Positions 53,847 through 56,186 of a stretch of 64,000 nucleotides of DNA are shown in pieces; within the stretch, counting starts at the first letter, position 1; each line of letters begins with the position of its first letter. The stretch is from a virus. Its lineage: Duplodnaviria; Caudoviricetes. The stretch covers positions 1 to 64,000 of IMG/VR virus record IMGVR_UViG_3300049792_000048; one strand, written 5' to 3'. The notes beneath the pieces are model-generated. The model had not been told where the DNA came from. It made no database searches and saw nothing but the letters and a program-made list of their open reading frames with translations. The position numbers and the translations under genes are program-made.

Positions 53847-54331
53847 GGGCCCTATCGGTCCTTCTGGTGGTTCTGCTGATTGCGGCCCCTGTACAGGCCC
53901 AGGAGGGCGCTCCGGTGCCCGAGGGGGACGTGGATGTCCCGACAGGCCCCGATGTCATCGTGGTGGCACGGGAGGGCGTGGCTGCTCCCTTCACGGGGCA
54001 GCTCTTCGACCAAGCCACGGCCCTGCGCTGGGGAAATCGGCTCGTCCGCTACCGGATGCGCATCCATCTCCTCGAAGAGGAGCTGAACATGACCAGGGCG
54101 GCGTATGACGCCTCGATCGCTCAGCGTCTCGATCTCCAAGCTCAGTCCTATGGCCGGGAGATCGACGGGCTGAGGACCGACCTTCGAGATCAGGCGACGA
54201 GGTACGAGAGCGAGCTGGCGCGGTACAGGAACCAGCCGTTCTGGGAGTCCTGGGGCTTCGCGTTCGGCATGGGCGCTCTCGTCGTCGCGATCGTCGTTGC
54301 GGTCGTTGGGGCTGCCATCTTCGCGCACTAG
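53843..54331 (+). CDS. secreted coiled-coil protein with C-terminal hydrophobic helix (spanin-partner-like)
   Basis: Signal peptide ending VQA-QE, coiled coil, WGFAFGMGALVVAIVVAVVGAAIF. Confidence 0.5.
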   Translation: MRALSVLLVVLLIAAPVQAQEGAPVPEGDVDVPTGPDVIVVAREGVAAPFTGQLFDQATALRWGNRLVRYRMRIHLLEEELNMTRAAYDASIAQRLDLQAQSYGREIDGLRTDLRDQATRYESELARYRNQPFWESWGFAFGMGALVVAIVVAVVGAAIFAH

Positions 54332-55008
54332 CTCTTGTAGATGTTGTAGACCTTGCGATAGAGCGGGTCCTGCAACACTGCATGCGTGCGGATGTCGATG
54401 GCCTTCATCTTCAGCCGATTCATGATGTCGTCACGGAACGGCCACATGAAGTAGTACGCCGAGCCCGTGAACTCGTTGGCGTAGAAGGTGTAGTCCGCCT
54501 CCACGAACTCGCCGCCTGTCCAGTAGCGGATGGCCATCATCATGGCGTAGCCGCGTAGCTCGACATCACGCCGGCTCGGAGACGGCAGAGGCAGAAGGGC
54601 GAGCAAGAAGATCAGCGCGAGGAGGAACCAGGGGCTCCAGAGCGCAATCAATGCGAAGAGGGCGAGCGCCGCCAAAATCTGCGGAAACGCGTTGCGCAGA
54701 AACATGAGCACTACACCATCTTTCTGCGCCTCCTTCATGTGGACGAGCTCGTGGGCGAGGACCCCGGCGACTGCCTCCTGATTGTCGAGGAGGTACTGGC
54801 GAGAGGGGATGTACACCGTGGCTCCTGCGGTCGTCGTGAACCGCGTCATGAAGCCCTTGTTGAAGAGCTGGGCGAAGAGGTTGAGGAACTTCATCCAGTC
54901 CGATTCGTTCTTGAACGTGAGCTCGAACCCGGGGATCTCCTCGTCGCAGAGGTCGATCATGCCGAGGAGTCTCTTGTTCGTGATGCCATCGATCATGGGC
55001 TTCATCAT
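54328..55008 (-). CDS. membrane-associated zincin-like metallopeptidase
   Basis: FTTT.G.TVY, VLAHELVH (HExxH), TM hairpin, ELRGY. Confidence 0.7.
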   Translation of the reverse strand: MMKPMIDGITNKRLLGMIDLCDEEIPGFELTFKNESDWMKFLNLFAQLFNKGFMTRFTTTAGATVYIPSRQYLLDNQEAVAGVLAHELVHMKEAQKDGVVLMFLRNAFPQILAALALFALIALWSPWFLLALIFLLALLPLPSPSRRDVELRGYAMMMAIRYWTGGEFVEADYTFYANEFTGSAYYFMWPFRDDIMNRLKMKAIDIRTHAVLQDPLYRKVYNIYKS

Positions 55009-55021
55009 GTCTCCTGAGAGG

Positions 55022-55066
55022 GGCAAAAGAAACGGGGCACTACGACGAATCGTAGCACCCCATTTC
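55022..55066 (-). terminator. intrinsic terminator with UUCG loop
   Basis: GAAATGGGGTGCTACGA-TTCG-TCGTAGTGCCCCGTTTC then TTTTGCC. Confidence 0.85.
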
Positions 55067-55072
55067 CCCCCA

Positions 55073-55297
55073 TCACGTCTCGTGGACGTGCTGCATGATC
55101 TCGGTGAGGAGCTTGCCGCGCTCCGCTTGCACTTTTTGGACGTTGATGCCGACCTGGTAGGCGAGACCTACCAGGTCCTGCATCGACATCTCACGCAGCT
55201 CCTCAACCGAGAAACTGATGAGCTGGTCGGCGTCGAGTGGTGTCAGCCCTTCAATGGCTGCTGCAACATCGACTTGCGGAGCCGACGGCTCGCTCAG
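55073..55297 (-). CDS. 74-codon ORF with no canonical start at its 5' end, Rho-N/HeH-like; probable -1 frameshift extension of upstream gene
   Basis: LSEPSAPQVDV..EELREMSMQDLVGLAYQVGI..RGKLLTEI; fills gap exactly between upstream stop and terminator. Confidence 0.6.
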   Translation of the reverse strand: MSEPSAPQVDVAAAIEGLTPLDADQLISFSVEELREMSMQDLVGLAYQVGINVQKVQAERGKLLTEIMQHVHET

Positions 55298-55836
55298 CCG
55301 TTTCCCGAGGCGAGCTCACCGATGCTCTTCCCCGCGAACTCGGCGAGGACGTCGGCGTCCGCCGCGAGCTGGAGGCTGTCCGCCATGCTCGGGTTCAGGA
55401 GGATGAGCTTCAGGAGCGTCTCGACGTTCGTGGACGTGACCGCGAGGCTGTCGAGCTTCGCGTCCATCTCCGCGAGCTTGGCGATGACGGGACCGAGGTC
55501 GACGCTGCCACCTCCTCCGCCCGTGCTCGCCGTCGTGGTGGTCTTGGCGCCCGCAGCAGCGGCCGGTGCCGCCGCCTTCTTCGCCCCCGCGGGAGCCGCA
55601 GCCGTCTTCTTCGCCCCCGTCGTCGAACCCGGGACGCGCTCCTCCTGGATCTGCGCGATCCGCTGCGCCCGCTCCGTCGGCTGCATGCGGGCGTACTCCG
55701 TCGCCGGCACCTTCAGCTCCTTCAGCGCGGCCACGATCGCCTCGCGGGAGTCCTTCTCGGTCCAGGTGGCACCGAGCTGCTCCCACTCGGTCGCCGTGCG
55801 CATCGGGATGTTCTCCGGCCATTTCGCGTTGCTCAT
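55294..55836 (-). CDS. hypothetical protein with Ala/Lys-rich linker and coiled coil
   Basis: GAGG SD; AKKTAAAPAGAKKAAAP; ends TCG GGA AAC GGC TGA. Confidence 0.7.
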   Translation of the reverse strand: MSNAKWPENIPMRTATEWEQLGATWTEKDSREAIVAALKELKVPATEYARMQPTERAQRIAQIQEERVPGSTTGAKKTAAAPAGAKKAAAPAAAAGAKTTTTASTGGGGGSVDLGPVIAKLAEMDAKLDSLAVTSTNVETLLKLILLNPSMADSLQLAADADVLAEFAGKSIGELASGNG

Positions 55837-56186
55837 GTCGTCGATCCTCTCTTCTTTGTGTCCAGAACCAGATTACGGTGATTGTCCAACGTGCACTCCG
55901 CGACCTGAACATCAGGACACGAAAAGCACGCATGGGGCTTGCGCGACTTCATGGGGCACGAGATCAGGGGAGACACCTGATCCCAGTGCGAGTCGCAGTA
56001 CTTGAAGATGGTCGCCCTCCAGATGTCAATGTGACGTTCCGGAAGTTCGACTTCCTCGCCTCGGATGATGGCGTAGAGCACTTCACGCGGAAGTCCGCGA
56101 TGGGCTCCCGGGTTCATGTACCAGGCCATCATCCCGAGCTCCGACGCATTGAGCTCGTCGAGGAAACTCCAACTTGCGTCAGCCAC
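55833..56186 (-). CDS. small Cys-rich protein
   Basis: GTG with GGAG SD; CPM..ACFSCPD..EC. Confidence 0.6.
   Translation of the reverse strand: MADASWSFLDELNASELGMMAWYMNPGAHRGLPREVLYAIIRGEEVELPERHIDIWRATIFKYCDSHWDQVSPLISCPMKSRKPHACFSCPDVQVAECTLDNHRNLVLDTKKRGSTT

Follow-up and report, generated by a model that had tools for sequence, protein, structure and literature searches.

A probable programmed -1 ribosomal frameshift at the end of a replication/recombination operon in a large uncultured soil phage

One gene of a 196-kb uncultured soil phage, the last in its replication/recombination operon, very probably yields two proteins from one message, as judged from comparative sequence data. It lies in the window, the stretch of 64,000 nucleotides analysed here (positions 1 to 64,000 of IMG/VR record IMGVR_UViG_3300049792_000048). 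The reading of its 3′ end that has the best support, and that we consider highly probable, is a programmed -1 ribosomal frameshift outside the tail-chaperone context. The same reading had been put forward in a preliminary description of the window, and it gains from the comparison with relatives, where the heptamer, its phase, the stop that follows and a 77-codon -1 ORF are kept in every case examined. The shift signal and its conservation, a covarying RNA fold, the coding character of the -1 frame and the fold class of the extension were all computed here. Coordinates are given in Table 1.

Table 1 Features of the frameshift locus and of its surroundings in the window.
Feature	Position	Strand	Description
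0-frame gene (P0002)	55294..55836	-	180 aa, 18.5 kDa, pI 5.3
TGA closing the -1 frame	55316..55318	-	3 codons 5′ of the heptamer
Slippery heptamer G_GGA_AAC	55300..55306	-	X_XXY_YYZ phase; identical and in phase in 16/16 loci
0-frame stop TGA	55294..55296	-	exactly 1 codon past the heptamer
Candidate stimulatory stem-loop	55220..55291	-	three tiers, ~72 nt; from covariation and folds
-1 frame extension	55073..55300	-	75 codons + TGA (55075-55073)
Met40 codon of the -1 ORF	55187-55189	-	invariant in 15/15 loci
ORF from Met40	55073..55189	-	38 aa
Intrinsic-terminator-like hairpin and U-tract	55025..55070	-	12-bp core, UUCG loop, flanking pairs; -30.4 kcal/mol, z -6.05
117-aa Cys-motif protein gene	55833-56186	-	4-nt overlap (ATGA) with the start of the frameshift gene
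M48-like gene	54328-55026	-	232 aa, past the terminator
Antisense ORF	54782-56005	+	407 aa; not counted as a gene
tRNA, anticodon CTA	24172-24246	-	would read UAG (ARAGORN)

A slippery heptamer one codon before the stop

The minus-strand operon begins with a family-A DNA polymerase (PolA), a RecA-like ATPase, a Holliday-junction resolvase (phrog_2002) and a Cas4-like exonuclease. These are followed by a 215-aa protein, a RusA-like resolvase, an 83-aa protein, a 117-aa Cys-motif protein and then the frameshift gene, an order that is kept in relatives. The neighbouring PolA, RecA-like, resolvase and Cas4-like genes, together with the terminator, agree with the earlier assignment of the gene to the end of a replication/recombination operon. 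The gene ends ...GAG CTC GCC TCG GGA AAC GGC TGA, and our reading of the sequence concurs with the preliminary one, in which the closing TCG GGA AAC GGC TGA puts positions 55306-55300 in X_XXY_YYZ phase. The 0 and -1 frames overlap by seven codons in the window. The TGA that bounds this overlap upstream is not conserved, and several relatives have a -1 frame that stays open much further upstream. GGGAAAC occurs five times in the window against 5.6 expected, so that a single copy is not significant; the weight of this copy comes from its phase, position and conservation and not from the count.

Searches of metagenomes recovered 15 relatives of the family with a single sequence and 34 with a profile, all of them 167-188 aa long and many on contigs of 130-197 kb. 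DNA was compared for the window and 15 relatives (L001-L009, L011-L013 and L015-L017; P0036-P0054 are not among them), giving 16 sequences whose protein identities span about 40-83%. GGGAAAC is identical and in the 0-frame phase at all of these loci, and the 0-frame stop, TGA or TAG, always lies one codon past it (16/16). The preliminary description had named conservation of the heptamer and of the -1 ORF in homologues as a check, and the counts come to 16/16 for the heptamer and 15/15 for the 77-codon ORF. At the protein level, a C-terminus of the form G-N-x-stop is shared by 35/35 family representatives.

Codon usage sharpens this picture. In the codon alignment of the 0-frame gene, Gly178 is encoded by GGA in 16/16 sequences, and GGA is the rarest Gly codon in the family, accounting for only 11 of 238 other Gly codons. 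Other invariant residues of the 0-frame gene with four- or six-fold degenerate codons use two or three synonymous codons each. The protein sequence alone does not account for the degree to which the heptamer is conserved in its nucleotides, and the stretch from the heptamer to a GAGC 15 nt downstream of the heptamer start is almost invariant across relatives.

Comparison of the 0-frame protein and the -1 ORF with Pfam and PHROGs gave nothing significant, blastn and tblastn against GenBank phages gave no match to the locus, and neither GTDB genomes scanned with the extension profile nor IMG/VR scanned with distant family members contained it. No in-frame fused homologue (~250 aa) is present among the 35 relatives over a search range of 92-329 aa, so that the locus lacks the support that a natural fusion classically gives.

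The -1 frame as coding sequence

Counted from the heptamer the -1 ORF has 77 codons, of which 75 follow a tandem slip. The preliminary description had the -1 frame running 74 more codons to a TGA before the terminator; the open run stands, and our count of it is 75. Because the terminator lies directly past the -1 stop, the -1 ORF is on the operon mRNA. Its length is exactly 77 codons at 15/15 loci that reach far enough downstream, and these 15 sequences together hold no stop in the -1 frame as compared with 54 and 17 in the other two frames. Nei-Gojobori dN/dS values are 0.49 for codons 4-14 of the -1 ORF, 0.51 for codons 15-39 and 0.37 for codons 40-77, as compared with 0.60 for the 0-frame gene. 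By these measures purifying selection acts on the -1 ORF, including the part 5′ of the GTG that gene callers choose in some relatives. Upstream of codon 14 there are sites with synonymous variation only, at Pro10 (CCG/CCA/CCT), Val12 (GTC/GTT/GTG) and Asp13 (GAT/GAC).

The sole ORF with a canonical start in the window's -1 frame is the 38-aa ORF from an internal ATG, and the ORF track therefore misses the rest of the frame. The preliminary description had said as much, noting the lack of ATG, GTG or TTG at the 5′ end; the internal Met is indeed the only start. Codon 14 is GTG at 13/15 loci, where gene callers begin ORFs of 64-66 aa, and GTT in the window and in L002, which have no canonical start before the invariant Met40. 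The ORFs of these two sequences differ from those of close relatives in 20-24 codons, of which 8-10 are synonymous changes.

Two possible starts within the frame were considered and rejected. Initiation at the CTG at 55297, raised in the preliminary description as a case that would speak against frameshifting, is ruled out by the presence of CTA or GTA at this codon in many relatives. Met40 as the sole start is ruled out as well, since residues 1-39 are conserved as coding and the GAGGAG that precedes Met40 is not conserved. In the window this Shine-Dalgarno-like GAGGAG lies 9 nt upstream of Met40; it is not kept in all relatives. A 38-aa peptide consisting of the helix-loop-helix only could also arise by internal initiation at Met40.

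A further way to express the -1 ORF is as a separate gene of ~64 aa, begun at the codon-14 GTG by translational coupling or re-initiation, with the heptamer kept for some other reason and the start lost in the window and L002. We regard this as unlikely. The GTG is present at 13/15 loci, the annotated ORFs of 64-66 aa begin there, and the 0-frame stop is only 27 nt upstream of it, all of which would suit a coupled start. However, the window and L002 carry GTT in place of GTG and their ORFs are still intact and constrained, the codons before the GTG (4-13) are conserved and vary synonymously at Pro10, Val12 and Asp13, and no Shine-Dalgarno sequence is conserved at a usable distance. A separate gene also fails to account for the invariance of GGGAAAC and its rare GGA, for the fixed position of the stop and for the stem-loop that begins 8 nt after the heptamer.

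A distant phage also bears on independent initiation. Besides the miscalled ORFs of 38, 40 and 64 aa, the extension profile finds a few distant small proteins of 56-66 aa, whose existence is itself in keeping with a separate gene. One of these, P0029, is encoded on a 201.7-kb contig (L018) with the same synteny as the window. There, the region L018:1615-2776 contains a 309-aa gene in which a homologue of the 117-aa protein (E 4e-20) is joined to a part that weakly resembles P0002 (hhalign E 0.0055). The homologous HeH ORF overlaps the end of this gene in the +1 frame and starts on its own ATG/GTG, with no X_XXY_YYZ heptamer present. A strong AAGGAGG is found in L018 just upstream of the 0-frame TAG. 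In another lineage, then, the HeH module can be encoded as a protein of its own. The separate ORF of L018 thus keeps re-initiation alive for the relatives that carry the GTG, and leaves the window unexplained.

A covarying stem-loop downstream of the heptamer

Past the heptamer, the mRNA is predicted to fold into a three-tiered stem-loop, a candidate frameshift stimulator. Its base pairs GAGC (55291-55288) with GCUC (55223-55220) and begins 8 nt past the heptamer (5-6 nt in L004 and L007); this base encloses a second tier, which in turn encloses a long apical hairpin. RNAalifold and single-sequence folds of 8/8 members tested returned the same architecture, with fold energies of the eight from -36 to -50 kcal/mol and z from -1.6 to -5.4. 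The window's own stem-loop is the weakest among the folded members (z -1.57). Across the alignment, 87.6% of cells were paired, as compared with 31-48% when partners were slid by one to three columns. Double changes occur at six stem pairs, and the covariation score was reached by 0/500 shuffles. The clearest covarying pair links the variable codon 15, at its middle base, with the third, synonymous position of Thr22 (GC 5, AU 3, GU 3, CG 2). A stem-loop after a 5-8 nt spacer has the geometry of bacterial -1 stimulators such as that of dnaX (PMC5009743).

The hairpin originally proposed at about this distance, GAGCC-GTC-GGCTC, is present in the window but broken in most relatives. It is ruled out as the stimulator: it is unconserved, and its GAGC pairs with the distant GCUC in every fold. 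No upstream Shine-Dalgarno stimulator is conserved in the alignment of the relatives, and Rfam holds no frameshift element that matches the locus.

Conservation and covariation of the RNA structure are independent of the coding argument and would also fit a regulatory element, in which the GGGAAACGG...GAGC block and the stem-loop act in RNA or DNA (in pausing, mRNA stability or protein binding) and the -1 ORF is untranslated or reached in some other way. The placement of the cassette at the 3′ end of the operon, just before the terminator, would suit such an element too. Nonetheless, we hold this to be very improbable, since it does not account for 77 stop-free codons in 15/15 sequences, dN/dS values of 0.37-0.51 and a predicted fold that is confidently helical. 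The constant X_XXY_YYZ phase is likewise left unexplained, and Rfam offers no match.

Both frames do look like parts of one multi-domain protein. That a former single 254-aa gene was split by an indel error in assembly or sequencing, or is decaying as a pseudogene, is nonetheless effectively refuted by comparative data: 16 independent assemblies, drawn from different samples and studies, show the same frame change at the same nucleotide, and none of 35 relatives has an unbroken version. Homopolymer error and transcriptional slippage need longer tracts than G3A3.

Predicted products and relation to known systems

With a programmed -1 frameshift as the preferred reading, the slippage itself is something we infer, and the course of events may be pictured as follows. 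The majority of ribosomes would read GGA AAC GGC and terminate at the TGA, giving the 180-aa protein. A minority would pause on G_GGA_AAC with tRNA-Gly and tRNA-Asn in place, held by the ~72-nt stem-loop, slip one base back to GGG AAA and translate 75 more codons to the TGA before the operon terminator. The predicted trans-frame product of this tandem slip has 179 + 75 residues, that is 254 aa and 26.6 kDa, with the junction ...ELASGN|RLSEPS... (in longer form ELASGN-RLSEPSAPQVDV). It would comprise the shared HeH-like domain, the linker, the long helix and a second, acidic Rho-N/HeH-like domain at the C-terminus. Efficiency is probably low, a guess based on E. coli data in which the A-site shift of AAC to AAA is disfavoured in shift motifs (PMC4066793). 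In Caulobacter phage Colossus the same heptamer, GGGAAAC, is annotated as the shift site of the tail chaperone (PMC3556154).

The extension and the 0-frame protein were modelled separately with AlphaFold2 on family alignments. The 0-frame protein models as an all-helical protein of small domains (pLDDT 68). Its N-terminal HeH-like helical domain (about 13-71) leads into a linker rich in Ala, Lys, Pro, Thr and Gly (about 72-112), disordered at 76-110 in the model, and then into helices at 115-176, of which the first is long (115-147) and the others are short. In the extension (pLDDT 73), short helices precede a helix-loop-helix (residues 42-76). In an exhaustive structural search, its top match was residues 1-45 of Rho (1a62_A; 45 residues aligned, rmsd 1.5 A) with a Z of 5.9, which is under the level where small helical matches can be trusted. 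YqbF, Ku70-C, SAP and LEM domains came next, the last three being enriched among the matches. The N-terminal domain drew the same list of matches at lower Z (Rho 4.1, LEM 3.2). At these modest Z-scores the extension is a candidate for a Rho-N/HeH/SAP-like fold, as is the N-terminal domain.

At E<=1, Pfam lists neither PF07498 nor PF02037 nor any family related to them for the extension, Foldseek against PDB gave nothing at E<=0.001 for either model, and the ESM Atlas gave no usable match. The Rho-N/HeH resemblance noted in the preliminary description is in keeping with the modelled fold and is not matched by a Pfam profile (E<=1). The extension also carries the pattern L-x-E-L-R-x-M-...-L-G-I-...-R-G-K-L-L-x-E-I, which we take to resemble Rho_N. 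An internal duplication, with the extension derived from the N-terminal domain, was rejected, as hhalign finds no similarity between the two.

The charge of the extension bears on what it might do. Its pI is 4.5 and that of the whole protein about 5, as compared with 10.6 for the 42-residue linker. A 'histone-like' reading was rejected as unsupported on this ground, the protein being basic only in the linker, with an acidic extension and an acidic whole. Nucleic-acid binding by the extension, suggested earlier in describing it as an extra putative nucleic-acid-binding domain, is unsupported in view of this acidic charge; typical SAP domains bind DNA, and the extension differs from them in its acidity. 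A role in recruiting a protein is at least as likely as nucleic-acid binding.

The two isoforms presumably co-assemble, at a set ratio, by way of the helices common to both, and do so as part of the phage's replication/recombination machinery. More tentatively, the frameshift may serve to fix a low ratio between isoforms with two HeH domains and those with one, so that the acidic HeH of a few subunits recruits a partner protein or a DNA end; we put this forward as a possibility whose odds are well below even. If it holds, the logic of lambda G/GT stoichiometry would have moved from virion assembly to DNA metabolism, with co-assembly through a shared long helix in large, RNAP-encoding soil phages, and the L018 lineage would get the same result by a separate overlapping gene.

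The closest parallel in phages is lambda gpG/gpGT. In both, a -1 slip on G_GGA_AAN (G_GGA_AAG in lambda) occurs, or here is predicted, near the 3′ end of a short gene and gives a major short product and a minor one extended at the C-terminus, which share the N-terminal part. Both arrangements persist in distant phages whose sequences, apart from the signal, are little conserved. The efficiency of the lambda G/GT shift is low. Unlike the lambda pair, the gene in the window belongs to a replication/recombination operon and does not lie between tail tube and tape-measure genes, and it has a large conserved 3′ stem-loop and an extension predicted to be Rho-N/HeH-like. It also differs from the tail assembly chaperone families in having no Pfam or PHROG chaperone match.

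The other parallel is dnaX tau/gamma, which shares with the present gene a replication context and, as predicted here, two isoforms that differ in their C-terminal domains and a 3′ stem-loop stimulator at a spacer of ~6-8 nt. The stop right past the site recalls the 'reversed' form of dnaX, where only shifted ribosomes make the long product and the 0-frame stop comes directly after the site (Atkins et al. 2016, PMC5009743). In contrast to dnaX, the heptamer is G_GGA_AAC and not A_AAA_AAG, no upstream Shine-Dalgarno stimulator is conserved here, and the protein shows no homology to DnaX/AAA+ (no such Pfam match).

The mechanism itself is not new; what we describe is a well-supported new instance of it, in a hitherto undescribed family of genes from large uncultured soil phages. 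Well-documented phage frameshifts cluster in tail assembly chaperones, capsid and tail proteins. A strictly conserved case in a replication/recombination operon, with a large RNA stimulator, would widen the functional range of phage recoding. It would also define a gene family whose second product is missed by gene callers or truncated to an ORF of 38 or 64 aa. The cassette of heptamer, 8-nt spacer and naturally covarying stem-loop, from high-GC uncultured phages, is experimentally tractable.

Several observations concern the surroundings of the gene. The 117-aa protein encoded just upstream contains a conserved CPM-x8-C-x2-C-x7-C motif and matches no family in Pfam or PHROGs; over 62 residues it shares 45% identity with the N-terminal part of the L018 fusion. 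Past the terminator, the 232-aa protein has a weak Peptidase_M48 match (E 0.0014), an HELVH motif and hydrophobic stretches; the gene is syntenic in all relatives, where it encodes 222-228 aa. The 407-aa ORF that spans the locus on the + strand was not counted as a gene, and long spurious antisense frames are expected at about 63% GC. In the window ARAGORN also calls a tRNA with the anticodon CTA. TAG is the 0-frame stop past the heptamer in 8/16 sequences, and the window uses TGA. If the phages that use TAG carry the same CTA tRNA, read-through would add a short 0-frame tail, of about 16 codons in L004.
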